A stretch of DNA of 64,000 bases, from the NCBI GenBank assembly GCA_951406725.2, contig OX597827.1, positions 49,786,001 to 49,850,000 on the forward strand, read 5' to 3'. A program made the position numbers and the translations under genes. The stretch is from Octopus vulgaris (Eukaryota). Below the pieces are notes generated by a model, which was given only the letters and a program-made list of their open reading frames with translations, was not told where the DNA came from and ran no database searches. This document shows, one piece after another, positions 9,389-63,481 of the stretch (position 1 is the first letter of the stretch; each line of letters starts with the position of its first letter).

Positions 9389-10109
9389 CACTCTCTTTGC
9401 CATAGCAACTACATCTTTATAGCTTGCAAATTTTAACCATCGCAGGTCGGATCATCACCACACATTTAGTACCCTTGCCAATTTTCAGCTCGATCCTAGT
9501 ACGTCTAGTGCCATTGAATCCTTACCAAAGCCAAAGTGTCAAGTTTTTTCCTCTTTTATATAGGTAGACAAGAGGAGAGACCACTCAGTGGTTCCCTTAT
9601 ATGCTAAAGATAATATTAATTTCTACTCTTATCCTTTATCATACTTTGCTACCTTTTATACTATCAGGTTTGGTGAAATTATTTTAAAAATTATTAATTG
9701 CTTTTTTTACTACTTTTTTGATTTCTTTATGTTCGATTGAATTAACAACCAACTCACACGCTCGTATGCACGCACATACACACACAAACACACACACATG
9801 CACACACGCATATACACACACTCACGCACACACGCACGTATGCGCACATATTATGCACATGCACATATTATTTCGCAACAGAGAAGTAATCTTGATATTT
9901 ATGTACAGTCGTTACTTGTAAATGTAATCGTTGAAACTGCTGAGTTGTTCCCCTTACAACGTATCTATTTCTGAGTGCTGAAATATTTTTTAAAAAATCA
10001 CTCTTTTTGCCATAGCAACCATATCTTTACAGTTTGCTAATTTTAACCATCACTGGTCTCATTTTCACTACGCATTTAGTATCCCTGCCAATTTTCAGCT
10101 CGATCCTAG
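9389..10109. repeat. Diverged direct repeat of about 110 bp (9389-9499 and 9999-10109), probably non-autonomous TE fragments
   Basis: cactct.tttgccatagcaac...gccaattttcagctcgatcctag occurs twice. Confidence 0.7.
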
Positions 10110-10172
10110 CCTCGATTTGGCGGCCATGAAACGTCAAATCAAAACGTGCATACAATTTTCGTCCAAAGACGG

Positions 10173-10234
<62 letters not shown>

Positions 10235-10249
<15 letters not shown>

Positions 10250-10380
10250 GATTTTGCAAGGACTAGAGAGTCAGAGATGATGTGGTCAATTGTCTCATTG
10301 TGCTGGTTGCACATTCTGTATTTGGTGTTAGGACCTGTTTTCATTACTTTGCTTTTTTAGTTGTTTGTGATCATGCATTG
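10235..10380 (-). mobile_element. R4/Dong CCHC-finger fragment
   Basis: KYRMCNQHNETIDHIISDSLVLAKSEY. Confidence 0.65.
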
Positions 10381-10449
10381 GTATTGTGCAGCGAGTTATT
10401 TCATTATTTTTTGTCGTTATTGTTGTGGTTGATATTGTTATTATTATTA

Positions 10450-11825
10450 TGCTTATTATATGTCTACTAAAATTAATAGTATTAGTATATATATATATAT
10501 TTGGTAATAGTTTTAGTAACGTTAAATAAATAATTTTGACTATGTAGTAAAAAATGTTTTCTTTATGTACTGTTTATTTATAATGATAATATGTACTTTA
10601 TTTATTCAATTAATGAGCGAAGTATTTAATCTAAATATAAATTACTTTACTTATATAATAAGTTTAATTTATTATTTTAGCATTTGTTATATATTTGTTA
10701 TAAATGACAATCTAGTTTATATATTAGTCAAAATGTATTTGTATCATATATTTCGAATTAGATTTATTTAGATGTTTATTTAATTAATTAATATAATTTA
10801 TTAATGAATATTCATTACATTACAGTTTTTAAATTAACTTAAGTTTATTAATTTGTAGTTATAATATAGTTATTGATTGAATTAGTATTGAGTTAATATA
10901 GAATGAGTCTAAAAGTTGTTTTGCCTAAATAAAGGTTTGGCTCCAACGTAACCATATTTATATATATGAAATAAATAAATTTGTATAAGATTATTAGAGA
11001 ATATACAGTAAATAGTAGTTAAATATATTATTTTAATTTATGGAGATTTTAGTATAATTTATCGTAGTTAAATCTAAATTTTAGTTTTATAGGGAAAGAT
11101 ATTATAGTGTATAGTGATTCTATACTCTATTAGTGACTTTATTCTCTTTGTCTATTAAAACTAAAATATATTCGTAGTTTTCATTGATAAAATGTATATT
11201 TCCATCTGTTTGTTCTATTTCTGTAAACAACGTAATTCCACGAGTTTTTATAAACGCTTAATAAGAAATTTTTTAGTTAATGATACGCTTTTTGAGAGAT
11301 AAGTAAACTTTGATAATTTAAGAAATATTATTGTACTCTATATAACTATTGATTGTTAAATATAAATTTATAATTTTTTTATCTGTTAATGATAATTTAG
11401 ATATGTACATTTATTTAATTATTTGTAGTTTATAATTATTATATCTGAACGTAAATTTTAAGATATTAGTCATATTGCAATCTAGATCTCTATTATACTT
11501 AACCTGAAGATTGACTATAATTTAAAATTGAATTCATTTCAATTAAATTTAAATTTAATTGTAATTCGAATTTAATTATAGCCATAAAACGTACGTAGTT
11601 TTTTTAACTTATATATTGATTATTCACTTTTATACTTTTTGTGATCTAGTTATATGTTTTATAAAACTATATTTTATTTATTATTTATGTTTTCGTTCAT
11701 GTCTCTCATTGTTTGAATTGCATAATAGTGGTTTTATCTCTAATTTATATTTTATATATTTATATTGTGAAATTTGATTTAATACTAAATTGAATTTTTC
11801 CCTGCAAGTTTGAAGTTATACTCCC

Positions 11826-11830
<5 letters not shown>
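10450..11830. other. Non-repetitive, extremely AT-rich island (visually above 80% AT) of unknown origin
   Basis: Abrupt compositional shift, bounded by (TA)n-type repeats, with no recognisable TE motifs. Confidence 0.75.
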
Positions 11831-11862
<32 letters not shown>

Positions 11863-11931
11863 AGAGAGAGAGAGAGAGAGAGAGATTGTGTGCGTGCGTG
11901 TGTGTGTGTGTGTGTATGTATGTGTGTGCGC

Positions 11932-11975
<44 letters not shown>

Positions 11976-12663
11976 ACACATATACACACATACTGAAAAT
12001 ATGTACGTATATGCATTTATGTACGCTTGTATATGAGTATATATGTGTTTATGTATGTATGCATGTATGCATGTATGCATGGATGTATGTATATATGTAG
12101 ATGTATGTATGAATGCATGTATATATGCATGTGCTTGTGTATGCATGTGTGTGCGTGCGTGCGTGAGCGACGTGTGTATTAATAAATGTGCATTTCTATG
12201 CCTGTGTCTTAATTCATGGGCTCATACCCCAGGGAATTTTTCCCTCACGACTTGCTCATATTTGTAAAATCAGAGTAACCACGTTACTGTTTCTGTACTA
12301 CTTTCGGCCAGCGAATCAAATTCGGATCACCCTCTAGACTAGAAAAAATGCGGACTAAATTTATGATAATGGAAGTAAAAGTACAGAGGGTAAATGAGCT
12401 GGATGTAAACTGGAGAATAATATTTAACCTATCCAGAAACAGGATGTCAAGCAGTGACATTAATAAACATATTTGAAATTCTTTTGTCTTTTATATATGT
12501 CTCGGCTGCAAAACATTCTTCATGTTTGTTTGGGATACAGTGGCACTGAACACCAATTTTTTTGTAAATCAGCTTCTTTTCATCTTGAAGAAATCTAGAG
12601 AGCTGTCAGTTTCTTTATGTCAAGTTCAGTATTATTCGTGTTGTTATTCCCTTATGTTCCAGC

Positions 12664-13090
12664 AGATCTTTTCGGTTTGAACGGCAGTTTTTTTCTAGCG
12701 GTGTCATATGAAATTGTCACCCATAGTTTTGACCCTAGTATCGATCTATTGCATTTCAATCTGTTTTAGGGTTAGGGTTAGTTAGGGTTAGGGGTGGAGG
12801 GAAGGGTATCTTTTTTTCTTCACAAATGTAAATAAACCCAATCTGTTTCTTAAACGAGGGACATATTCATACGGCACAGAATGCTTTTTAGCTCAATAGA
12901 CGTCACTGATTGGTTGAAATTGCAGAAATTGAAGAAAAAAACAACAAATATCTTGCAAACTATAAAATTTTCTCAATAAAGCCAAGAGAAAAAGATGTTT
13001 TATAAACACATTCTACCAGTATGCGAAGTTTAAAATTTTTCAGTTACCTAGAAATTATGTTAAAAACTGCCGTTCAAACCGAAAAGATCC
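12664..13090. mobile_element. MITE with about 28-bp TIRs, 8-bp TSD and internal TTAGGG repeats
   Basis: TIR (G/A)GATCTTTTCGGTTTGAACGGCAGTTTT at both ends; TSD GTTCCAGC at 12656-12663 and 13091-13098. Confidence 0.92.
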
Positions 13091-13099
13091 GTTCCAGCT

Positions 13100-13500
13100 A
13101 TTAAGTCAACAGAAGAATATTAGTGGAACATTCCAACTGAAATGCCTACCAAGTGCCAGCAATAACAAGGCTGATATAATTACTTGCGACAGAAAAGAAA
13201 AATCATGTATACTCATATAGGTTAGCTGCCCTGCAGGTGTAAATATCTCTTCTAAAATCAGCGACGAGAATCTTTATGGACAAGTGCTTCGAAATCTACA
13301 ACCTCTCTGCTTTGATTATGAATTCACATTTATGCCAATAACCATTGATGCACTTGTTAGTACATGTCTAAGGAACAATGTAGAAAAACTAGGATTTTCA
13401 AGCAAAGAAATCGGCTAACGCGCACTTTATAGATACAATCTACGAATGGAAAAGTAAAAAATAAAATTCAAAACTTCTCTAAATTCAATATGTAACAATT
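13100..13500 (+). mobile_element. Highly decayed RLE-type non-LTR element (endonuclease region)
   Basis: Residual WNIP, NKADII..D, VSCPAGVN motifs, similar to the region near 22150-22280. Confidence 0.55.
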
Positions 13501-14028
13501 GTCGTTGACCAAATTTCAGCTCCTTTCTTCTCGAAAAATTCTAATAGATAAAAAAGTGAAGAAATTTGCATCATCCATCCATCCATCCATCCATCCATCC
13601 ATCCATCCATCCATCCATCCATCCATCTGCACATGATTCTACCAGAGAATTAGCTTAAGGGTACAGATAGAAATAGTATGGCATTGTGTCTGAAAAGGAT
13701 TTTCCATTTGGAGTACAATCCATTTGATGGGATTCCATACAATTTCTTTTTACCCAGTTTCCCATTTCACTTACAGGTTCGAGATGATAGAAAATGACTC
13801 TTGCATAAGATGCTACGCCGTGTGAGGCAACCTTGGACATTATAGCCGCGAAGGGAACTTTTGTAACCATTTGGTTAATGCGCACACTCACACACTCATG
13901 CACACATACACACGCACAAGCACACTAACACATACACATACAGAGACAAGTATTTGCGCATGTCTCGATTCTTTCTCTCTCTCTCTCTATGTGTGTGTGC
14001 GTGTGTGCGTATGTGTGAGTGAATGAGT

Positions 14029-14068
<40 letters not shown>

Positions 14069-14083
14069 AAGAGATAGAGAGAA

Positions 14084-14151
<68 letters not shown>

Positions 14152-15421
14152 ACACGATCTTTTAATTCCGAACATAAGATTCATAATGGAGTGGGAATTA
14201 ACATCATCCATGTCATGAGACAAAAAGTTTTCTAAAACTAAAATTATACCTTTGCTAATGCAAATTATTTATAACTAATTCTTGTTTAAAATGCATGGGA
14301 AATTACTGCGAAAATTTAATTTAAAGTCTTGCCTTACTCTTGTATCAACCATTAACCATCAACCATCAGCTATTAGTTAATCATCAACTACCAACCGTCG
14401 TCCATCAACCAACAACCAGCAACTAGCATCTAGCAGGATAAATTTCGTTTTGAAAAACAATCCATCTGTTGGCAAAGTCACAAGACAGAAGCAAACATCG
14501 GTAAACAAAATATAACTCCTACTCCGTCTTGGTATTTGTCAGTATCATGAAAAGGAATATTTAGAAATAACTTTAACTTCATAAATATACGGAAATCTAT
14601 GTTAACCTCATTGCTATACAATAACTGAGGGAGAATGTTAAATTCCCCTTCCACGTGCAACGGGGTTCTCTCCAAAAACAGTGTTTATCTCTGCATTTAG
14701 TGGCATTAATCGGATGATGAGAGACAGTTATGTACGATATGTCCCGAAACAATGCCTGTCTACAGGTGGCAAACGCGCTCAAGATCTGAAGATCTGATAC
14801 CTGTTACTTCTGACAACTAGGCGCACGGAGAGTTTTAGTAATACTTCTTAAGTCTTCTCCCATTACACTGCATCGCCACTCTTAGCCAAAACTTTAGAAA
14901 ATAACATATGTAGCTGCTATTGAACTCGTAACCAAGAATAGTTGATAGTTAAATCTTTTCTTTTATTTCATAAATCAAGGGTGTACATACATCTGTATAC
15001 TAATGTACAAAGACACAATGGTGTTGTAGGAATGTAGTGTGGTGGGGTAGTGTAGCGTAGTGTGGGGTATAAATGAAGGTAGTGCCGGTGTAGTACAGAT
15101 AGTGTTGGTGAGAATGCGGGTGATGTGGAGTGGTTGTCTGGTAGAGTAATGTCACGTTTGTTGGTAGTTTAATGTGGTTTCGTGCTGGTATTGACCATGC
15201 CGAGAACACCAGGTCACGGGATTTCGACCTTCCCCTGTCTTGTCAATGATGGACACTCGACTGCTAGAGATAGCAGCACTTCACTTTTCAACCAACGGTA
15301 TATAGAATAATAGTGCCAGAACTGGCGCTGTTTTTGCGGTTAGACAGTGGCTAACTATATATATATATGATCTCATGTGATCTCTTAAGCACCACCAGCT
15401 CTGGGATCTTTCCTTCTCCTT

Positions 15422-15456
15422 GTTTCCGACGAAGAGCTCCGCTCGAAACGTTAAAC
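15422..15456 (+). ncRNA. Minimal type I hammerhead ribozyme motif (U4C core) in a Penelope-type tail
   Basis: GTTT-CCGACGA-A-GAGC/TCC/GCTC-GAAAC-GTT-AAAC; stems I and II pair. Confidence 0.7.
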
Positions 15457-15569
15457 CCTCCTTCCCTTCTTTTCTGAGCGTCAGTAATACTTTAATTGTT
15501 CCACTTCCTGCGTTGCTGTGTTTTTTCTCTTTTTTTCTCTTTTTTTTCTGTGTTTTCTTGTTTGGATTA

Positions 15570-15609
<40 letters not shown>

Positions 15610-15704
15610 ATCCAAACATGAAAGCACAAAAAAAGCACAACAACGCGAGGACGTGGAACAAATATAGTATTATTGGACACTCAGGAAAGAAGGAAAGAAG
15701 GAGG

Positions 15705-15739
15705 GTTTAACGTTTCGAGCGGAGCTCTTTGTCGGAAAC
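15705..15739 (-). ncRNA. Inverted sister hammerhead motif carrying G8A (probably inactive)
   Basis: Reverse complement GTTT-CCGACAA-A-GAGC/TCC/GCTC-GAAAC-GTT-AAAC. Confidence 0.6.
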
Positions 15740-15804
15740 ATAGGAGAAGGAAAGATCCAGAGAAACAGAGGAAAAAATCGACAACGATACACACGCGGTG
15801 TCGC

Positions 15805-15838
<34 letters not shown>

Positions 15839-16859
15839 ATTAGCGACAGGAGCAGTAATAACACCGAGATGTAATATTTATCCCCACTTAAGCATAGATG
15901 TTCTGTTAGAACAAGTTATACTGCGGCAGATACTATGAGAGAAATTCTCATATAGGCTTTTGATACAAAATGTATTCTTGTTTATATCGCTAGAGGGGGC
16001 GGAGACAAACTCCCTCCACCTCTAACGCCGAAACCACCGGATTTCGACAAAATCACGTAATTGATCTCTTCGTCAGCGACATAAACAAAAGTGCATTTTG
16101 CACCAAAAACCGTGGTATCTACCGCTGAATAATTTGCTCCAACAGAACATCCACGTTTAAGTGGTGATAAATGTCACCTCTCGGTATTCATACTTCTTCT
16201 ATTGCTAATATATACTTTTTTAAAGTATATATTTAGTGCTTTATTATTTAACACACTCACCGGTAAAATTTCCACTCATTTACTTAATTATTTTTCTAAA
16301 ATTTTCATTGCGTCTTGCAACCTTTTGAATAGTTATTGACTATTGATATGCGTTCTTTTTGTTTGTGCGCAAGTGTGTGGGTCAGTGTATCTGCGCATGT
16401 ATATATGTATGTATGTGTGTAAATTTGAATGTATGTATTCTGCATAGTCACGTGTTTGTGTGTTTGTGTGTTTTTATGTGTGTGTCTGTGTGCTTTCATG
16501 TGTGTGTGTACCTCTGTCTCCTTGTGTGTGCATGTCTGTGTGTGTGTATGGGTTTTTGTGACTATGTACTGTGTCTGTATGTATGGATGTATATCTCCAT
16601 ATCTCCATATGTGTGGACGTGTGTCTCCATATGTGTCCTAGTGTGAAGTGTGTGTGTGCATATGTTCATGTGTTTCAGTCTTTATTTGCGTACGTGTGTG
16701 TATGTGTGCTTGTCTGTTCATATTACCTATGTACCTATCCGTCAGTGTGTCTATCTGTTTACTTTCATATCCATTTGCCTACATAGATGTGCATACATAC
16801 ACACACACAAACACACACATCTACATAACAGCCCACTACCTATTCTACCAGTATATAAA

Positions 16860-17970
16860 TATAAACTGTAGGTGTGGGAGTATGATTATCTGCTGCGTAT
16901 ATTTCCTATTTAGTACTGGAGATGTTTCATTTATGAGGACGCACTCTTGTATTTGTCTGAGTGTTGGACCCTTCGGGTGCTTGGATAAAATGCAGATGTC
17001 AAGTTGTCCCAGGTTGCCTCCAAGCTGGTCCTTGGCATGTTGGTAGAGTATGGAGGACGGTTTTTTTGTCGTCATATTGTCTCAAATGTTCAATTAGTCT
17101 TTCCGCAATGCTCCTAGATGTCTCCCAAGCAACTTTTATGCATTTTAAGCTGTAGAGTACATTTCTAGTTCTACAGTTAATGCCAGGGCTAATCCTACAT
17201 ACCATGCAGTTATCATTGGTGCATATGGTATTCTCAAAGGGGTACATTCTACATAGTTGTGACCTGATGGAGTTCCCTAGCTTTTCAACATTCTTAATGT
17301 TGCGTTTAGTCTCCTTCAGAGTTTTCCTAAATCTACGGGCAAGTTCTTCATGGGCTGTAGCCTCTACAAACATCACTCCTTGATATTTGTTTGTTTTATA
17401 CTACGTGTTCACCCTGTTTGCTTTGTCACAAGCTCTTTGTATCCTATTCCAGTCTTTGCTTCTATATCTAGGCCAAGAAAAAAATTTTTCATTATATATA
17501 ATGTTATCTAACTTCTTTCTAGCACTTCTGTATACTCGAACCCTATCTTTCTGATCATATCCAGAGAATTGTATGCGGTGCATGAAGTCCTGTACATGTT
17601 TCTTCGTTTCATAAGCTTTACATAGTGGGAACACATTGCTCCTTATCCTAACTAAATCTGCTATCAGTATGTTAACTTTCATGTTGTGTGACAAAGCTGA
17701 GTTCTTGTGAACAACATATTTCGAAGCTATGGTTTTCATGTAATAGGAGTTGCACTCTTGTTGTTCACAGTCTCTAACCAAAGTTCAGTATCAAGGACGG
17801 GAGTCTATTGTTGGGGTGCCTAGTGGGGTAGTCTATTGTTACCGTGATACTTTGGTGGATGGAGTTAGCTACTTGCTGGATACTCTCCATTATGCTCCTC
17901 TCAGTTTCTACATTTCCGTTACTAGAGTTGGTTTTAACTATGATATTAATGTCATCTACATACCTACTGT
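16860..17970 (-). mobile_element. Decayed Penelope-like element (RT C-terminus to GIY-YIG)
   Basis: YSRYVDDI, YYMKTIASKYVVHKNSAL, FSGYD, NCMVC..INCRTRNVLYSLKC, ETSRSIAERLIEH. Confidence 0.85.
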
Positions 17971-17997
17971 ACACATACACACACACGTACACACACG

Positions 17998-18073
<76 letters not shown>

Positions 18074-18075
<2 letters not shown>

Positions 18076-18283
18076 ACTAGGGTGTTAGGAAACACTTCAT
18101 CAGTTAACCCCCCTCGGAAATTGCCAAAACTGACGTCAGTATTAAAAATTCTCGATCGCCACTTTTCGAACGATTATTGTCCCTGCTATTGTATATGTTT
18201 TTATTCATGTACGTTAACTACAGCATTAGAAGTATTTAGCTCTTATTTCTAGCAATGTAGGTGTTTCCTAAACACCCTAGTCA
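18074..18283. mobile_element. Small MITE-like element with about 22-bp terminal inverted repeats
   Basis: TGACTAGGGTGTT-AGGAAACAC versus the reverse complement of GTGTTTCCTAAACACCCTAGTCA. Confidence 0.65.
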
Positions 18284-18358
18284 CATTTAGTGACAATTAG
18301 AATTCTCCTTTTTGGTGAAACATTGTAAACTGCTGTTTATATTAATTTTATATACATA

Positions 18359-18421
<63 letters not shown>

Positions 18422-18469
18422 AAATAAGTATAAAAATGTGCATTGTCCGTTTAATATAAAAATTCTATA

Positions 18470-18557
18470 TGTGGCTGAAGATTGCTCGACATTTTAAAAC
18501 TGATGTAATACTTACAGTGTTTAATAAAATGAAGTACCATGAAACGATCGTACTACA
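18470..18557 (+). ncRNA. Type I hammerhead motif with long stem II region and palindromic stem III
   Basis: TGTGG-CTGAAGA...GAAAC-GATC-GTA-CTACA; stem I TGTGG/CTACA; stem II pairing uncertain. Confidence 0.55.
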
Positions 18558-18589
18558 CTACCTTGAATATCCTTGTTGCTTATTTTGAT

Positions 18590-18673
<84 letters not shown>

Positions 18674-18701
18674 TGTGTGTGTGTGTATGTGTGTGTGTGT
18701 G

Positions 18702-18977
18702 TGGACACGCGGTCGTAGGGTCGCGGTTTCGTTTCCCAGACAGGGCGTTGTGAGTATTTACTGAGCGAAAACACCTAAAAGCTCCACGAGGCTCCGGCAG
18801 GGGTGGTGGCGGTCCCTGCTGTACTCTTTCGCCACAACTTTCTCTCACTCATTCTTCTGCTAGCCTGCTCGCTTAGCCAGCAGGGTGGCGTCATTTGAAG
18901 GCTAAAACAATGCGAAGCGCATTGTGACCAGCGATGTGTAGCAACATCTGATAGCCTGGTCGGTCATGGTGATCACG

Positions 18978-18981
<4 letters not shown>
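18702..18981 (+). mobile_element. tRNA-derived SINE (family also at 43860-44004, minus strand)
   Basis: Shared gcggtttcg.ttcccagac..ggcgttgtg and gaggctccggcagggg; the 43.9-kb copy has a tRNA-like head. Confidence 0.75.
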
Positions 18982-19034
<53 letters not shown>

Positions 19035-19072
19035 GAAAGAAGGTTTGAAAATGCAATTTAAAAGATGTTTAT

Positions 19073-19117
19073 TTACTTTACCGGTTTCACTCTTTGGAAA
19101 AAGATTGTCAAAAGTAA
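19073..19117 (-). ncRNA. Type I hammerhead motif with compensated U3-A8 core
   Basis: TTACTT-TTGACAA-TCTTT/TTCC/AAAGA-GT-GAAAC-CG-GTA-AAGTAA. Confidence 0.6.
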
Positions 19118-19614
19118 CATGTGGAAGTTTGGTTGCGTTAATTATTGCTTGTTGCAAATTGCTACATTACATATATATATATACAGTCTTTGGTAACAGG
19201 GACATGTTAAGGACATAAAAATGTTCAACAAGTTCCTTAAAATATTGGGCAAAAAAGATTACATAAATAATCGTTCTCAAGGACATACTTAAGATAGTTT
19301 CCAGAAGGAATTGATATTGGTACTGTATCTGTATATTCAAACATGCACAGAATATTGGTTGACACAGAGTACTATAATCCATATAAATATACAGTCTTTG
19401 GTGACAATAGTATGTTGAGAATATAAAAAGTTTAACAAGCTCATTGAAAAAATGGGCAGAAAAGATTAAAACAAATATATTATACATCTCAGGGTAATTT
19501 CCAGGAGGAATTATTAAAAAAAGTTCAGTATACACATACAGAATATTATGAGTTCAAAAAGATTTATATTATTGTAGTGGTGAAGTTGTCACTAACCTGT
19601 CCGTTATGAATGGG

Positions 19615-30919: not shown

Positions 30920-32530
30920 TAAGTAAAATATATCTAGTTTTTTTTAATTATTTGATGAGGCTATGATGTTAGCTACGTTATGGGTTAAACTATCTTAATT
31001 GTTTTACAGTTAATAATTTCAAAATATCTATTTTTTGTATTAAAATGCTTATTAATAATCCTGAATACAGATTTGACTAGGTTTGTTTTAAGTTGTACAG
31101 CATAAGGGATTATAAGCCAATTATGATCGTTGGTTCTTTCAATGTTGTTATAATACGTCACGGGCGTGTTGCTGTGCGCATGATAAATGTTGTGTTTGTG
31201 TTCTTTACTAATTTCCATTTTTTTATCTCTATAATAGGTAATTATTGGTGATTCAGTGATCTTTCAGTTTACAATAATCACTGCTATTGATATAGCGATT
31301 TATGTTATTAATATTATTATTTGTACATTGTTTATTTATGTTCCTTTCGTTAACATTGTTATTTGTTTTATTATTTTTATATTCATGTTAGTGTTGGGGA
31401 CCATGGGTTTCTGCATTTTTTGTTTAATTTAGATTTATGTGTGTTATTACTATTATTACCATTCCTATTATTACCATTACTAATCCCGTTATCGTTGTAC
31501 GGTCTATAGTATTTTATTTTACTTTTATATCCCACGTTTTTTAAGGTAATGTTGTATTGGTCCTTGTGTTTATTAAATATGTCGTCATTAGAAGAAAGAT
31601 AAGTTAATCTCTTACTAATATTTTTTATAAGAGCCTCTTTGATTGATCTAGGGTGATCACTTTGAGAATGTATGTATTTTAGGTTGGAGTTAGGTTTCAT
31701 GAAAGGTTCATGTAGCCCAGTAGCTTAGTTACAGTTGACGTCAAGATAGTTAATCGGGTTATTTTCATTCTCTAATTATAGAAAGGCCAAATGTTTTTAA
31801 GAATTTATTCAGGTGTTTCTTGAATAATTCTAGGCGTCGGTAAGAGGTATTTCTTTCTATATAAAGAGTGTCATCCATGTATAGTCTCCACCCACAAATT
31901 CCAGGAATTCATTATTTAGGTTATCATGTTGATTCCTACAAGGTCGGTCACCTGTGCGGAGTCTTGCGTGTCCATTGTTATATCAGAATAATTAGGAGTA
32001 TCCTTTCTAGCCCGCAATTTATTATCAAATTCAAGAATAGATTTACGAGTGGTGAGGATTACGTTAATTTCCTTCATGCTAACCTTTGTATGGTTCCTAG
32101 CAAAAATAAGGGCACTATTTCAAATCGTAGGATTAATGGAGGACTAATAATTTTCAATGTGTATCTGTAAGAATTTGTGTTTGTCTTTCTGTTGTATTTT
32201 ACAGAACCAGTTTATTGTGTTTTGTGTATTAGGCCATAATTCTAGCTTAATCTGGTTTCTAAGGGTAGGTATATACTTATCTAAAATTACTTTACTAAGT
32301 TTGCCTAAATCTGATTTACTGGGACAAATTAATTTAACCTTAGTGTTAGTTAGAAAATTCTCTTTATGGTCTTTAATAGTAATATGTGATCTAATGGGTG
32401 TGAAAGGTTCTGTTTTATCATCAATGTAGTAATCAGCCATTAATTTTTTAGCGTTTAAGTTAATTAGTCTGAGAGTGCTTCTGTATATAGCCACTATTGA
32501 ATTAATTAATTCAATAGTGGCTATATACAC
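30540..32530 (-). mobile_element. Decayed Penelope-like element (RT through GIY-YIG)
   Basis: HITIKDHKENF..KVKLICPSKSDLGK, LYMDDT, INYLDV, MKPNSNLKYIHSQSDHP, YQCSIT..IYIGATE. Confidence 0.85.
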
Positions 32531-33199
32531 TCTTAGCCGCTAGTGTAATGCATGAACATTTAAATTACTTGATAATCAATATTTACTCCCCCACCTATAC
32601 CTTTATCACTCTTAACTTTTTAATTCAAGGTTGATGCTTCTAAAATTCACCGACATAAGCAACTTTTAGGGCCCCTTCAATCATCTACACATTGTTTACA
32701 TTCTTACTTCAGTAAGTAACGGTTTCCTTATGACCTGCCTTTTGTTTTTGAAAATTAACTGACCAATTGTATCCCCCTACTGTCCGGTCCAGACCAGGAG
32801 TTGTTTCAGGTATACAACCTACTTATAATAATTAGTATAATGCATATGAAATCAATTATAGTAAATTATAGTCAACTGTTATTGTTTATTTCTTTAACTA
32901 CCGGTATTTCTAAGTATTTTTCTTACTTTTTCACTTTATTTTTCGACTTTACTAAATTGCTCATTTTATATATCTATCTCACGCCTTCCCCACCCCCGTA
33001 TATTGGAATGTACCATTTAATATTACAACTACCCCTTATTCTATTTCTAATTTCCGGTCGGTCGAAAGTTTCAAAGTGGGTCAGCATGTAGCACCAATAG
33101 ATTATAACCGTTCTCACTTCCTCTTTCTTTTTCTTTTTACCTATATTTTATTTATTTTTCCGCTCTGATGAAGTTTCGTGATTCAATTTGGTATAAATA

Positions 33200-34572: not shown

Positions 34573-36130
34573 CTATTTTTCTGTTTTGAGGAATTTTGAT
34601 CTGGGATCTGTGCAGAGCCATCGTTTGACGTAGACTATTTTTGTTTGGCCTATGTATTGCTCTTGACACCCAGTGCAGGTTAGTGCGTATATCAGGTTCT
34701 CCGAAGCACATGTGAAGCTGCTTTTCACTGTGAAACGTTGTCCCTGTTTGAAGGAGAACTCTGATCCTTCAATTAAATTGACGCATATCCCAGTTGGGTC
34801 TTCCGCATTTGTTACTAACGGCTTCTGTGTTGTTGTTGAGCGTATTCGGGCTTGTGTTAGGAGACTTTTCATAGATTTGAGCTGTCTCTTGCTTTTTATG
34901 ATGGTGTGTGTTTGGAGGATTAAGTTCATTTTGTGGTCCTTTTTTTAGCAGGGGAATGTTTTGAAGGTTGGTGTCGAAGGCTTCATTGTTAAGAGGGATG
35001 TGTGTGATGTATAGTAGGGCTTTTGGTTGTAAATCTTTTATTTGGAATGTCTGAGTTCGTGGATGTTGAGTTGTAGGGCACATTGAAAGCATATGTCAAT
35101 TAGTGAAGGTGGGTAGTTCTTTGTGATGAGTGTATCCCTTAGTTCATGTACTCGTGTGTCTCTGGTGCTTGCATTAGAAATTATAGTACATACCCTTTTT
35201 TCTAGGTTGAAGGGAATATTCATTCTTATTTCTTTATTGCTCACAAGGAGCTAAACATAGAGGGGACAAACAAGGACAGACAAACGGATTAAGTTGATTA
35301 TATCGACCCCAGTGCGTAACTGCTACTTAATTTATCGACCCCGAAAGGATGAAAGGAAAAGTCGACCTCGGCGGAATTTGAACTCAGAACGTAACGGCAG
35401 ATGAAATTTCGTAAAGCATTTCGCCCGGCGTGCTAACGTTTCTGCCAGCTCACCGCCAGAATATTCATTCTGATGTGTCTGGGGTGGCATGAGTTGAACG
35501 GTAGATATTGCTTGGAGTCCGTAGGCTTATAGTTTATATCTGCTTCTATTACGTTGTTAGATCTCTTAATGAGGATGTCGAGGAAAGGAAGTTGTTGATG
35601 GCTATATTCCATCGTGAATTGAATGTTTACGTCAAGTTCATTTGTTAGTGCTTGGAATTCTTTAAGTCTCTCTATACTTTCATGCCAAAGAATGAAACAG
35701 TCATCCAGGTATCTCTCCCAGTTATTTTCTATGTAGAGGGAGAATGGACTGCCGTATTTTTCTAGAACCTTACGATAAAGACTAATCTCTAGATATCCCA
35801 TGGCTAGGTTAGCAAAGGCTAGAGAATTACGCCAACGAACTCCCACATCGCATCAAAAAAGAATTCGTGATAGAAGGGCTAAAGTTCATCTTGGAGAATA
35901 ACTACTTCGTCTTCAAAGACAACTTCTGTCGACAAAAATCGGGCACTGCGATGGCTACGAGAATGCCCCACCTCCTTTGTTAACCTAGTCATAGGATATC
36001 TAGAAATTAGTCTTTATCGTAAGGTTCTAGAAAAATACGGTAGCCCATTCTCCCTCTACATAGAAAATAGCTGGAAGAGATACCTGGATGACTGTTTCAT
36101 TCTTTGGCATGAAAGTATAGAGAGACTTAA
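34573..36130 (-). mobile_element. Penelope-like element (RT plus GIY-YIG) with an inverted duplicate segment at about 35860-36130 and a SINE insertion
   Basis: ANLAMGYLE, WERYLDDCF, LPFLDILI, YKPTDSKQYL..SCHP, NLIYALTCTGCQEQYIGQT. Confidence 0.9.
35225..35458 (-). mobile_element. tRNA-derived SINE with a Nin/Deu-like central domain
   Basis: Minus strand GGCGGTGAGCTGGCAGAAACGTTAGC...GAGTTCAAATTCC...CCTTTCATCCTTTCGGGGTCGATAAATTAAG. Confidence 0.85.
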
Positions 36131-44187: not shown

Positions 44188-44361
44188 CATACATATATAC
44201 ATACATACATGATGTTGGCTGGTTCTCGCAGACTCCAGATACAGAGATATTGAAGGGATCCAGCGTACTGAGCATGGGACTGATAGTGCTCAAGTGTTTA
44301 AGTGGAATGGACAACCTTATTCGGATGAATGATCGGAAGATCCCTAAACAGTTGCTATACT

Positions 44362-44783
44362 CTTTACTCTTTTACTATTTTACTTGTTTCAGTGATTTGA
44401 CTGCGGCCATGCTGGAGCACCGCCTTTAATCGAGCAACTCGACCCCGGGACTTATTCTTTTGTAAGCCCAGTACTTATTCTATCGGTCTCTTTTGCCGAA
44501 CCGCTAAGTAACGGGGACATAAACACACTAGCATCGGTTGTCAAGCAATGCTAGGGGGACAAACACAAATACACAAGCACACACACGCATATATATATAT
44601 ATATATATATATACATACATATATACGACGGGCTTCTTTCAGTTTCTGTCTACCAAATGCACTCACAAGGCTTTGGTCGGCCCGAGTCTGTAGAAGACAC
44701 TTGCCCAAGGTGCCACGCAGTGGGACTGAACCCGGAACCATGTGGTTGGTAAGCAAGCTACTTACCACACAGCCACTCCTGCG
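44362..44783 (-). mobile_element. Abundant tRNA-derived SINE of about 400 bp with internal (TA)/(TG) tract and (GTAAAAGA)n tail. Other copies: 39718-39840(-), 51118-51546(+), 54112-54487(-), 57477-57888(+), 62066-62460(+, broken), 62819-63223(+), 63420-63742(-)
   Basis: Repeated GGCGCAGGAGTGGCTGTGTGGTAAG...GGTTCAGTCCC...GCGGTGCTCCAGCATGGCCGCAGTC...TGAAACAAGTAAAAGAG. Confidence 0.92.
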
Positions 44784-44887
44784 CTTACTGTGAACATATT
44801 TATAGAAAGCGCCTCGAACAGAAACCAAGACTACAAGTTAAGGATTGTGTAAAGTCCTCGTTGAAAGCATGTGAGAGATATGGAAGA

Positions 44888-44916
44888 TCAGGTCGGAAAG
44901 CTATGTTTGTCATCGC
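44888..44916 (-). CDS. Candidate last coding exon of an unidentified host gene: (G)DDKHSFPT-stop
   Basis: Strong acceptor ttgtttgctctattgcag; phase-1 join to the upstream exon; TGA at 44888-44890. Confidence 0.55.
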
Positions 44917-45019
44917 CTGCAATAGAGCAAACAAGTAATGGAAGGACTGGGTGTTTTCGAAAGAAAATCTCAAAGCAACAGTAGCACAGAAACGCACGTA
45001 TTTTTAATCGAAAACGCAC

Positions 45020-45221
45020 CGAATGGGAGATGTTTGGCCTGCAGTATCTGCAGACGTGTATGTGTATCAGGCCGAAGCGAGATGTCTGGTAAACCAGTGT
45101 TAACCGTAGGTTTTACATCAGTGTCCCTTTCCTTGAAGGATACTGGGACAACAGCTGGAGATCCCTTACAGATTTTTGTCGGTGTTGAAGATGAAGATGA
45201 GTGTTCCATTTGTTCGATTAC
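45020..45221 (-). CDS. Candidate penultimate exon (202 nt): VIEQMEHSSSSSTPTKICKGSPAVVPVSFKERDTDVKPTVNTGLPDISLRPDTHTRLQILQAKHLPF
   Basis: Acceptor gtttag, open frame, donor G/GTGCGT, 103-nt intron; non-repetitive sequence. Confidence 0.55.
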
Positions 45222-45327
45222 CTAAACTGCATGTTTATTAACTTATAGTGTGACTGAGTATTCAACTGACGTGTACTTTATTTACATTATTTACATTTGA
45301 CGGATATTTGTCCTCATCTTTGTTGTT

Positions 45328-45373
45328 AATACAACATTTCGGCTGATATACCCTCCAGCCTTCATCAGGTGTC
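45328..45373 (-). ncRNA. Minimal type I hammerhead motif, slightly decayed
   Basis: GACAC-CTGATGA-A-GGCTG/GAGGGTATAT/CAGCC-GAAAT-GTT-GTATT. Confidence 0.65.
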
Positions 45374-45507
45374 TTGGGGGGAAATTTCAAACTTGGGTTC
45401 TCATTCCTAAGGTATATTTCGATGTTGTTGTTGATGTTGTTGTTAAATCCTTTAAAATGTTTTAGCCCGAAGGCCGCGGCCATGCTGGGGCACCGCCGCT
45501 GGAATAT

Positions 45508-45558
45508 AAAAAATATGGAAGGCTTCACGAATTTGCGTATCATCCTTGCGCAGGGACC

Positions 45559-45598
<40 letters not shown>

Positions 45599-45604
45599 AT
45601 TGCC
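45508..45604 (-). pseudogene. U6: U6 snRNA retrocopy lacking about the first 11 nt
   Basis: GGCAATACATATACTAAAATTGGAACGATACAGAGAAGATTAGCATGGTCCCTGCGCAAGGATGATACGCAAATTCGTGAAGCCTTCCATATTTTTT; ACAGAGA box and AGC triad intact. Confidence 0.97.
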
Positions 45605-45664
45605 TCAGGTCCCTGCCTAGAATCGAACTCGGGTTAGTAGTCCGCGCTCTTAACCACTACTCTA
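45605..45664 (-). promoter_or_regulatory. tRNA-like SINE head with Pol III A and B boxes, fused directly to the U6 copy
   Basis: TAGAGTAGTGGTTAAGAGCGCGGACTACTAACCCGAGTTCGATTCTAGGCAGGGACCTGA; B box GTTCGATTC. Confidence 0.75.
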
Positions 45665-46099
45665 TATCCGTCAAATGTAAATAATGTACATAATTCCTCA
45701 TCTCTTAAATATAGAACTGTACTTTTAACGCATTCTTCAGGTGGAATAAGTATAAGTATGACAAGATTGTATCTTTGTATTACAAGCACAATCCATCTGA
45801 CAGATTTCAATTTTGTCTCTGTCTACTCAATTTCCCTCACAAGGTTTGGGCAAACCCGAGTCTGTGGTGACACGTGCGCACGTTGCTCTGCAATGCGATC
45901 GAATCCAGGACGTGTATAATTGCAAACGCGTACATAAATACATACGCACATACATACTAGCATGCATATACGCACACATATACACACACACATAAACGCA
46001 TAGTAGTACATGCATATATAAATTCATAAATACACACATATGCATACATACGTGCATGCATACATACATACATACATACATGCATGTATACATACATAT

Positions 46100-51064: not shown

Positions 51065-51121
<57 letters not shown>

Positions 51122-51828
51122 GTAGGAGTGGCTGTGTGGTAAGTAGCTTGTTTACTAATCACATGGTTCCGGGTTCAGTCCCACAGCGTGGCACCTTGGG
51201 CAAGTATCCTCTACAATAGTCTAGGGTCGACCAAAGCCTTGTGAGTGGATTTGGTAGATGGAAACTGAAAGAAGCCCGTCGTATATATGTATATATATAT
51301 ATATATGTGTGTGTGTGTATATATGTTTGTGTGTCTGTGCTTGTCCCCCCAACATCGCTTGACAACCGATGCTGGTGTGTTTACGTCACCGTAACTTAGC
51401 GGCTCGGCAAAATCGACCGATAGAATAAGTACTAGGCTTACAAAGAATAAGTCCTGGGGTTGATTTGCTCGACTAAAGGCGGTGCTTCAGCATGGCCACA
51501 GTTAAAATGACTGAAACAAGTAAAAGAGTAAAAAGAGTAAAAGAGTATAGCTATATTACTGTGTATGTATGCGTGTGTATGTGATTGTGAATATTCTCCA
51601 TACATTGGTACAGTTATTTACGCATATGTATATCATAGCAGCTGAAACTTCCCTTATTTCAACTTTCACTTTTTAAAAAAAAAAGTTATATTTTGTTTCA
51701 GTTTACAACAGTTCCTCCCGTCTGTATGCACTCAACCGTCATTCTTTCTCCCTGTATCTTATTCTCTCTCACACATATACACACTCAAGCATATGCATTA
51801 CTTGCATACACAACATATGTATACACAT

Positions 51829-51984: not shown

Positions 51985-52019
51985 GTTTGACGTTTCGAGC
52001 AGAGCTCTTCGTCAGAAAC
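51985..52019 (-). ncRNA. Canonical minimal type I hammerhead ribozyme (GUC site)
   Basis: GTTT-CTGACGA-A-GAGC/TCT/GCTC-GAAAC-GTC-AAAC; palindromic ACGT stem III. Confidence 0.85.
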
Positions 52020-53319: not shown

Positions 53320-56910
<3,591 letters not shown>

Positions 56911-57889
56911 GCCCAAAGAGGCACAACCACTGCCTTCATAGTTGCCGAAATGAGAGGGTCAATCTACATTCCAAATCTTGGAATTTTTTTCTATGAACAA
57001 AATTTTATATTTTTGATTCACCCGAATTATACATCAACAAAACGCGTCTGAAACAGCTGTAGCGAACCTTTGACCCATTCGTGCTCTTGTTTTACATAAA
57101 CATCATTCCTGGAACCTTCCCTATGTTGCATCTGGAATTTACATTGGCTCGTGAAACTGCATGCCGGTGTGCATGGGTATATAATTTCATGTGCATGTAT
57201 ATTTATATCTATGTGTATAATTGTGTGTGCATGTACATGTATATGTATGTGTAAGTGTGGGAGTATGTCTGTAGATGCATGGACATGTACGGGTATATTT
57301 GTATGTGGTATGTACACGGATGTGCGGAATCAGCTCATGCACGATGTCCTTGAAATTCAAATATCTTGATTCAAATGAATCCTACAAATAGTTAATAATT
57401 AATAATAATGATAGTCCTTTCTGCTATAGTAACAAAGCAAGAAATTTTGGGAGAGTGAACTAGTCGCAGAGTGAATAGGCGCAGGAGTGGCTGTGTGGTA
57501 AGTAGCTTGCTTACCAGCCACATGGTTCCGGGTTCAGCCCCACTGCGTAACACCTTGGGCAAGTGTCTTCTACTATAGCCTCGGGCTGACCAAAGTCTTG
57601 TGAGTGGATTTGGTAGACGGAAACTGAAAGAAGCCCGACGTATATATATATATATGTATGTATGTGTGTGTATATGTTTGTGTGTCTGTGTTTGTCCCCC
57701 TAGTATTGCTTGACAACCGATGCTGGTGTGTTTATGTCCCCGTCACTTAGCGGTTCGGCAAAAGAGACCGATAGAATAAGTACTGGGCTTACAAAGAATA
57801 AGTCCCGGGGTCGAGTTGCTCGATTAAAGGTGGTGCTCCAGCATGGCCGCAGTCAAATGACTGAAACAGGTAAAAGAGTAAAAGAGTAG

Positions 57890-61810: not shown

Positions 61811-62664
61811 AAATGGATAAAGTTCTATAAATAATTGTATAAATAATTAGCTGTAAAATATTAATAAAAAAATAAATCCCAAACTCGAGTTTGGGATTAA
61901 CTAATTAATTTTTTTGTTCGTTCTAGTGTTATAACGGCGTATTTTATACACTCTTATATCGTTAAAAATATGTCTTATGACTTTTATTTATACATGTTAA
62001 CCATGGTAATAAATTATTTTAATTTATTACCCTCATATTTACGATACACACACACGCATATATATAGGCGCAGGCGTGGCTGTGTGGTAAGAAGCTTGCT
62101 TCCCAACCACATAGTGGCCCACCAAAGCCTTGTCAGTGGATTTGGAAGGCGGAAACTGAAAGAAGCCCGTCGTATATATGATTGATTGATTGATTCTAGT
62201 TTCAGCTCATGAGCTGTGGCCATGCTGGGGCACCGCCATATATATATATATATGTATATATATATATGTGGCCATGCTGGGGCACCGCCATATATATATA
62301 TGTATATATATATATACATGAGTATGTATATATGTGTGTGTCCGTGTTCCCCCGTCATCTCTTGACAACCGATGCGGTGCGTTTATGGCTCCGTAATCTT
62401 GCGGTTCAGAAAAAGAGAACGATAGAATAAGTCTAGGGGTCTCTTTTTTCGACTAAAACCCTTCAATTACTTTACGCTTGATAGCGGTTATATACTCTGC
62501 TATTGTGAGGGCCAACAAGGTCTAAGGTAGTATTTCCGGGTTTTCAGTAGCCAATAACTTGAAAATCATCAGTAGGGCTGCTGGTTTGTGTGCAGTTACC
62601 GAGTGCATATACACACCCAGGAGCACATATTCCACAAAAATATGTGTATGCATATATATATGTG

Positions 62665-62701
<37 letters not shown>

Positions 62702-63481
62702 ATATGCATACATATATTCATATATATACATACACATGCATACACACACGCACACACACACTCATATTTACATACATATACATATACATAAATTTATTCA
62801 GGAGTGGCTGTGTGGCATAGGCGTAGGAGTGGCTGTGTGGTAAGTAGCTTGTTTACCAACCACATGGTTCAGGGTTCAGTCCCACTGCGTGACACATTGG
62901 GCAAGTGTCTTCTACTATAGCCTCGGGCCGACCAAAGCCTTGTGAGTGGATTTGGTAGACGGAAACTGAAAGAAGCCCGTCGTATATATGTATATATCCA
63001 TGCTTGTGTGTGTTTGTGTGTCTGAGTTTGTCCCCCTAGCATTGCTTGACAACCGATGCTGGTGTGTTTATGTCCCCGTTACTTAGCGGTTCGGCAAAAG
63101 AGACCGATAGAATAAGTACTGGGCTTACAAAAGAATATGTCCCGGGGTCGAGTTGCTCGATTAAAGGCGGTGCTCCAGCATGGCCGCAGTCAAATGACTG
63201 AAACAAGTAAAAGAGTAAAAGAGAAAAATAATAATATATGTGTGTACTTGTATGTGTGAATGTGTGTATGCGCGTGTGTGTATGTGTGTGTATGTGTGTG
63301 TGTGTTCATATTTGAGATATTTGGTGACATTGATATTTTAAATACACCACTGTGTGTGATATTAAAGCAAGTATTCTAATAACAATAACGCAGTCTCATA
63401 CAAACATGTAAAAACAAACATAAACACACCAGCATCGGTTGTCAAGCAATGCTAGGGGGACAAACACAGACACACAAACAT

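Follow-up and report, generated by a model that had tools for sequence, protein, structure and literature searches.

The window is the whole stretch of Octopus vulgaris DNA that was analysed, 64,000 nucleotides long. At 45272-45729 it holds a composite repeat with a tRNA-like head, a microsatellite and a hammerhead-bearing tail. The parts named by the sequence-only reading were all present when the sequence was read again, on the minus strand and about where that reading had placed them. We distinguished the following features.

45691..45720, possibly reaching 45729, plus strand: one-sided extension (a 'tail' in the usage of the literature on Penelope-like elements, PLEs) of the inverted piece (loose-end consensus, P0002, P0012)
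45664..45690, plus strand: inverted, 5'-truncated copy of the element's 3' end (29/30 identity, shuffles)
45605..45664, minus strand: tRNA-derived head with A box 45654-45664 and B box 45620-45630 (A and B box pair, tRNA alignment)
45508..45604, minus strand: U6 snRNA retrocopy with a T6 end, a secondary insert (Rfam RF00026)
45445..45507, minus strand: 9-base spacer and 54-base 3' end of another LINE or SINE behind the U6, also secondary insert (recurring motif)
45421..45444, minus strand: microsatellite of two (AAC)3ATC units, with the insert at its start (sequence)
45374..45420, minus strand: body, from microsatellite to hammerhead (high read-contig depth from about 45412 downward)
45328..45373, minus strand: minimal type I hammerhead, broken in the window copy (motif match, family majority letters)
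45272..45327, minus strand: 3' end of the direct copy, two 9-base units, ending where the extension would begin (loose ends)

Position 45664 is common to the inverted piece and the start of the A box. Self-comparison of the 64-kb window found no second copy of the head or the tail, and poly(A) is absent from the element's 3' end. No stop-free frame of at least 120 codons overlaps 45272-45729, and the unit lacks the RT plus GIY-YIG reading frame of an autonomous PLE.

The U6 retrocopy was the only gathering-level Rfam match in the window (RF00026, 45509-45612, 97.8 bits, E = 4 × 10−24). It apparently lacks about the first ten bases of U6, and its alignment is weak over the first model positions. 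The sequence-only reading had claimed that removal of the U6 leaves a tRNA-like head, an (AAC)n run and the tail. These parts are indeed there. However, the U6 did not come alone, because the 9-base spacer and the 54-base foreign 3' end (45445-45507) came along with it, and the (AAC)n run has to be corrected to the two (AAC)3ATC units at 45421-45444. A motif of 20-48 bases from the foreign 3' end was found at 8 other sites in the window, five of which are the 3' ends of a different repeat of about 430 bases. The five copies of this repeat are 85-93% alike (44354-44787, 51116-51589, 54102-54488, 57475-57888 and 62817-63278), and its 3' motif also occurs in short copies inside (TA)n at 62218-62289.

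No target-site duplication of at least 4 bases was found for the U6 insert. Template switching is known to produce a 5'-truncated U6 that is followed by a short LINE or SINE end and has at most a small duplication (PMC4476161). The U6/LINE chimeric retrocopies of Doucet (2015, same source) resemble our insert in this combination of truncated U6 and short LINE/SINE 3' end, as with platypus L2 and opossum RTE. However, those chimeras were reported from vertebrates, whereas here the repeat context is of octopus type and the chimera is only a secondary insert.

The A and B boxes at 45664-45620 are the only such pair in the window on either strand. The expectation was 0.255 pairs per shuffled window, or 2 × 10−4 per given 100 bases, for a pattern that was taken from the textbook consensus and written after the sequence was seen. 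ARAGORN and Rfam made no tRNA call for the head, which lies below their thresholds, and plain folding recovered no cloverleaf for it. Among 50,697 phage records, the single BLAST match to the head was a tRNA-Arg (21/22, E = 2). The head is colinear with this BLAST-picked tRNA-Arg, starting at tRNA position 8; the alignment has a single gap of 8 bases, by which the head is shorter in the anticodon/variable arm. We infer that this gap is probably why ARAGORN and Rfam missed the head. For tRNAs that had not been picked by BLAST, the alignment gave p = 0.0085 (tRNA-Lys) and p = 0.11 (tRNA-Leu).

The sole box pair and the colinearity with tRNA-Arg agree with the tRNA-like head of the sequence-only reading, and the derivation of the head from a tRNA is supported at the level of such comparisons. 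The head is enclosed by the tail and the inverted tail copy, faces the tail and has both promoter boxes intact. Sense-strand T-runs of at least four between 45272 and 45664 occur in the insert only, and the element proper is free of T4. Where the extension ends, at 45723-45726, there is a T4 run that is backed by one other copy and could be a candidate Pol III terminator.

The tail carries a motif of the minimal type I hammerhead. Stem I is formed by 45369-45373 with 45328-45332, the core lies at 45362-45368, an extra A at 45361, stem II at 45341-45360 and GAAA at 45337-45340, and the predicted cut falls between 45333 and 45332. A hammerhead core with a stem II of at least 5 pairs was found once in the window, against 0.07 expected from 100 shuffles. 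The window copy has the CUGANGA core, the extra base, G10.1-C11.1, stem II and GAAA but lacks the palindromic stem III and the stem I of 3-5 pairs; it is broken at 45336, where the stem III palindrome is lost, and at 45330, where stem I has a mismatch. In other copies, different letters are in the majority at both positions (72-86% of depth at 45336 and 92-96% at 45330), and these letters give a palindromic 4-mer stem III and a 5-pair stem I. The loose-end consensus at 45327, with 106-216 contigs per run, carries the two majority letters jointly.

The family majority has the core CUGAUGA, the extra A, the G-C closing pair (G10.1-C11.1), stem II and GAAA. The majority motif fits each field of the >80% consensus of metazoan PLE hammerheads (Fig. 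S3, PMC4209133). The hammerhead/Penelope-type tail that had been proposed is well supported for the family, of which the window copy is a decayed member. Rfam gave no hammerhead match here even at E = 10, and the hammerhead region of the window folds no better than shuffles (z = −0.17), plain folding missing the hammerhead. Eight of the 46 hammerhead positions vary at 5% or more. Two are the changes of the window copy, three are CpG decay, and the remaining three lie in loop II or at a free core position, a placement with a post hoc p of about 0.011. Most minimal hammerheads are single, scattered motifs left by truncated PLEs, and as monomers they did not cleave in vitro (PMC4209133). In one PLE, cutting required protein and was dispensable for insertion (PMC11167929).

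Some further motifs were seen during this analysis. In other copies, a second B-box-like motif lies upstream of the hammerhead (45386-45394, minus strand; loose-end consensus at 45379, 126-272 contigs per run), and it is decayed in the window copy. A different repeat family at 51993-52015 (minus strand) has an intact minimal hammerhead with a palindromic stem III and a 4-pair stem I, and two decayed copies of it are inverted around (TA)n at 15403-15799. This repeat is likely another pLTR family. A metagenome scan found 19 loci that share the core and stem II of our element, but only short pieces aligned to the family (best E = 1 × 10−5). Two of them (L006 and L015) lie in bacterial-looking coding DNA, which indicates that the bare motif can arise by chance, and most of the remaining loci failed a strict stem I check. 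None of the 19 was taken as support for the family. In six of them (L001, L003, L007, L010, L011 and L016), which are low-GC metagenome contigs, the core and stem II lie within inverted-repeat structures, and these are probably PLE ends from animal host DNA.

We then consider how the element ends. The sequence-only reading had noted an inverted copy of the distal tail that abuts the head from about 45664. This was confirmed by a match of 29/30 bases between 45278-45307 and 45664-45693 (E = 4 × 10−8), whose exact run of 25 bases was reached in 0 of 2000 shuffles, and the inverted piece proved longer than stated, since 45691-45720 has to be added. It consists of 27 bases of the 3' end and an extension of 30-39 bases that is conserved in the family. 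All 30 letters of 45691-45720 equal the loose-end consensus beside 45272 (94 contigs in run X7, 83 in run X6), and the protein match P0002 reads from the direct tail straight into the extension (18/19 residues). From this equality and read-through we take the extension to be family sequence. Another protein match, P0012, follows the frame out to 45729 (8/10 residues). It is a second copy with the inverted 5' layout, in which the inversion is longer, the junction is another one and the direct copy is truncated.

In the window copy, the extension is found at the inverted side only, and the direct copy stops where the extension starts. Elsewhere in the family, loose ends accumulate at 45272, 45274 and 45278; at the common 3' ends 45274 and 45278 the flanks are AT-rich and unlike each other (agreement 0.41-0.43). 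PLEs have been reported to carry an inverted, 5'-truncated copy at their 5' end and an extension of 30-40 bp, often at one end only (PMC8557442), and the extension has been tied to two start sites of reverse transcription and an AT-rich target (PMC11167929). The insertion layout reads as this PLE signature of an inverted copy plus a one-sided tail.

Two features of the ends resemble those of LINE products. The 9-base unit occurs in 1-3 copies at the 3' end, like a LINE-type tandem tail, and an 8-base direct repeat (45718-45725 and 45272-45279) flanks the whole unit and could be a target-site duplication. LINEs are also abundant in the window. The element might then be a classical tRNA SINE that is moved by a LINE through its short tandem 3' end, with the hammerhead as a passively captured piece of a PLE and the inversion as an accident of twin priming. 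However, a LINE tail leaves the conserved extension beyond the 9-base units, present at one end only, unexplained, and twin priming would not account for the same 3' end recurring upstream. The flanking repeat agrees with the family's own end at 7 of its 8 bases, and P0012 suggests that its left copy is also family sequence. The tail has no match to the LINE remnants of the window. We consider this account improbable. As a separate observation, the segments 45683-45690 and 45718-45725 (plus strand) form a 7/8 inverted repeat that brackets the extension, the same letters making up the candidate 8-base flanking repeat. A stem-loop could therefore form between the two presumed start sites of reverse transcription.

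Copies of the tail are very numerous. Part of the tail was contained in 23 of the 24 listed sequencing runs, which bear six organism labels and one metagenome label, and 10,045-19,370 contigs per run matched in four runs labelled as four organisms. The comparison with read contigs covered 44850-45505 less 45413-45505, so that the head lay outside the compared stretch. Summed depth over the tail reached 1-8 million, against about 50 for single contigs (about 5 in X6); the ratio of 1.2-2.1 × 10^5 is a rough guide and no copy number, and it suggests tail copies of the order of 10^5. These copies are dispersed, with unlike flanks (the same agreement of 0.41-0.43). Exact-pattern scans of viral contigs and prokaryote genomes found no copy.

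Word-based protein searches with the frames of the tail found nothing. An exhaustive protein search with its open frame gave 37 matches, which we read as spurious ORFs over other copies. Among the 20 records looked up, two protein records of the tail were labelled Octopus bimaculoides. By a motif that we chose ourselves, 7 of the 37 belong to the family of the window element. A sister unit of 38-44 codons (about 114-132 bases) accounts for another 14, where it forms head-to-tail repeats (P0001, P0003-P0007, P0010, P0013, P0014, P0020, P0021, P0025, P0026 and P0029), an arrangement as in pLTRs and retrozymes. This tandem sister hammerhead family is a candidate non-LTR retrozyme. Several other protein matches share a common 5' leader. 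The match P0015 (XP_052825882.1) is a predicted dystrobrevin beta isoform of Octopus bimaculoides whose first 23 residues come from the hammerhead region (21/23 identical), possibly by exonisation or as an artefact of the gene model.

The tandem sister family raises the question of whether the element itself spreads like a retrozyme or like SMalpha. Tandem arrays would be transcribed, the hammerheads would cut as dimers, and the monomeric or circular RNAs would be reverse-transcribed. SMalpha works in this way (PMC6765202), and the majority hammerhead of our family is intact and, with its palindromic stem III, could dimerise. However, none of the 7 family matches is among the 14 tandem ones. 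Among the loose ends listed, the top ones at the family's 3' end lead into unlike flanks or into the extension, never into a next unit, and copies end beyond the predicted cut, by 55-60 and by about 90 bases, rather than at it. We regard such a mode of spread as very improbable. The sequence-only reading had proposed a SINE/retrozyme hybrid on PLE machinery. Its PLE-type tail and tRNA head are supported, but the retrozyme half finds no support in this family: the window copy is single, copy ends have unlike flanks and the hammerhead of the window copy is decayed.

The association between head and tail was also investigated. The link is seen in the window copy alone. The head frame (5-of-7 match) was found in 0 of the 37 protein matches, a weak test in that most of them start at a methionine downstream of the microsatellite. 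Only two of the 7 family matches reach the end of the microsatellite: P0012 is truncated at the inversion, and P0019 starts in the microsatellite with residues that are not those of the head. Presumably this tail is often joined in octopus sequences to a trinucleotide run and a head of tRNA type, which we take only as a lead.

A search of the 64-kb window for an autonomous PLE with the same tail found none, and four motifs had 0 matches in the supplement of PMC8557442. The window does contain a PLE-like RT remnant at 35436-35852, with an atlas score of 0.96 to HTH_animal clusters. ORF remnants on the minus strand at 34576-35852, 32147-32539 and 17002-17784 resemble pieces of PLE RT or GIY-YIG in their motifs, and of these only 35436-35852 has the backing of a tool. 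Pfam gave nothing significant for these PLE-like remnants, and none of them adjoins the tail. PLEs make up 6.83% of O. vulgaris (PMC13282606 supplement).

Since the head is missing from the protein matches, the tail could be a headless, pLTR-derived remnant of a PLE, either a solo pLTR or a retrozyme monomer. The head would then have arrived at the junction of inverted and direct copies as the first part of a chimera that also comprised U6 and a LINE tail. Three-part chimeras reportedly exist (PMC2104539), retrozyme monomers derived from PLEs are widespread (bioRxiv 10.64898/2026.07.22.740005), and the dispersed single motifs of truncated PLEs (PMC4209133) are of the kind expected. However, it needs a double template switch and an insertion exactly at the inversion junction, whereas the reading that we prefer needs one ordinary U6 chimera. 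For head, U6 and tail together, there is no convincing target-site duplication but a 4-base match only. The head also faces the tail and retains both promoter boxes. We therefore regard the headless remnant as unlikely, though as the strongest of the alternatives.

We conclude that the element is probably a Pol III-driven, non-autonomous element mobilised by a PLE, as judged from the sequence. The PLE reading of the tail is well supported by the majority hammerhead, the 5' inversion with its one-sided extension, the unlike AT-rich flanks, the lack of poly(A) and the tandem sister family. Given a PLE-type tail and a tRNA promoter, the element is likely copied by PLEs rather than by the usual LINEs. 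We lean slightly towards a bolder version, in which the family ranks among the most abundant octopus repeats, its copies numbering on the order of 100,000, and is a genuine SINE that is transcribed by Pol III and has a PLE as its autonomous partner, the minimal hammerhead being kept under selection as a signal for the PLE enzyme.

The process may be explained as follows. Transcription by Pol III would begin at the head with its A and B boxes and extend over about 300 bases, the element proper being free of T4. A PLE protein would bind the pLTR-like 3' domain and nick AT-rich DNA, and reverse transcription would start at either of two sites, 30-39 bases apart. The nearer start would yield the direct copy ending at 45272, and the farther one, for which the opposite strand would serve as primer, would yield the short inverted copy with the extension. 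Because a lone cut would remove the priming region, the hammerhead likely serves as a recognition structure that has been inherited, or its cutting depends on dimer formation or on the help of protein. The microsatellite would later have received a chimera of U6 and retroelement tail, and as Pol III would be stopped by the T6 of this chimera, the window copy is likely dead.

SINEs have been described as dependent on non-LTR retrotransposons, whose tails they mimic (PMC10886601). Non-autonomous elements derived from PLEs are known (PMC8557442, PMC7761336, bioRxiv 10.64898/2026.07.22.740005). Our search of the openly accessible literature found no report of a PLE-mobilised tRNA SINE. Such an element is likewise undescribed in the accessible parts of the O. 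vulgaris repeat annotation (PMC13282606) and of PMC8967140, PMC4758252, PMC4824008, PMC3531059 and PMC6962438. The element also matters for the annotation of octopus repeats, which contains 1279 SINE families, 250 Mb, that are unclassified (PMC13282606 supplement). With a tRNA-headed element that bears the insertion marks of PLEs, the SINE rule would come to include the telomerase-related enzymes of PLEs. As a natural template of about 300 bases with very many dated insertions, it could reveal the smallest RNA for a PLE protein and the start site of reverse transcription. It could also show whether the minimal hammerhead serves for cutting or as a signal for binding. All three questions are raised in PMC11167929 and PMC7761336.

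The closest known systems are the PLE pLTRs with minimal type I hammerheads (Cervera and de la Pena 2014, PMC4209133; Craig 2021, PMC8557442; Frangieh 2024, PMC11167929). They share with our element the hammerhead fields, the inverted 5' copy, the one-sided extension of 30-40 bases and the AT-rich sites. However, the octopus unit has no RT or GIY-YIG ORF, and its hammerhead is preceded by a Pol III head of tRNA type and a microsatellite. Schistosome SMalpha and Sjalpha, whose original papers reportedly date from 1998 and 2000, are also short non-coding repeats in which a Pol III promoter is followed by a type I hammerhead. As far as the accessible texts describe it, SMalpha is often tandem, is freed by its own cleavage and has the canonical schistosome hammerhead, whereas the octopus unit is single and has a PLE-type minimal hammerhead with PLE insertion marks, which are not described there for SMalpha (PMC6765202, PMC8490949). 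Thus SMalpha is a precedent for the combination of promoter and hammerhead. A tandem hammerhead family of Drosophila willistoni has been labelled 'SINEs' (Fig. S5, PMC4209133).

Animal non-LTR retrozymes (PMC7761336; bioRxiv 10.64898/2026.07.22.740005) are non-coding, carry type I hammerheads, have a proposed PLE origin and mobilisation, and occur also as monomers. However, they are defined by tandem units and circular RNA, and a tRNA head is undescribed in the accessible parts of these sources, whereas the octopus family shows a single copy in the window and 0 of 7 matches in tandem. Non-autonomous Chlamys elements such as MRC1 also form pLTRs, and they share their 3' ends with autonomous PLEs (PMC8557442). 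The Chlamys clade is without canonical hammerheads, and a tRNA head is unmentioned in the accessible text of that paper.

The tRNA-derived SINEs (SINE2), which include octopus OR1 and OR2, resemble our element in the A/B-box tRNA head, the short length and the very high abundance. However, the octopus tail looks like a pLTR rather than a LINE 3' end. Octopus SINEs were reportedly treated by Ohshima and Okada in 1994, and we take OK to be the name of one of them, alongside OR1 and OR2. It may be that our family has been catalogued before, under OK, OR1 or OR2 or in Repbase, Dfam or the Zenodo library of PMC13282606, with its tail unrecognised. OR1 and OR2 have been described as CORE-SINEs (PMC4824008, PMC4758252).

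Kojima (2024, PMC10886601) described the TRIMp3 elements Cassandra, Helenus and Ajax, which are non-autonomous, have a captured small-RNA promoter and do without LINE machinery. However, TRIMp3 elements use the machinery of LTR retrotransposons, and the octopus element would be their PLE counterpart. If this is true, PLEs would provide a third route for tRNA-headed parasites, beside the LINE-driven SINEs and the LTR-driven TRIMp3s.
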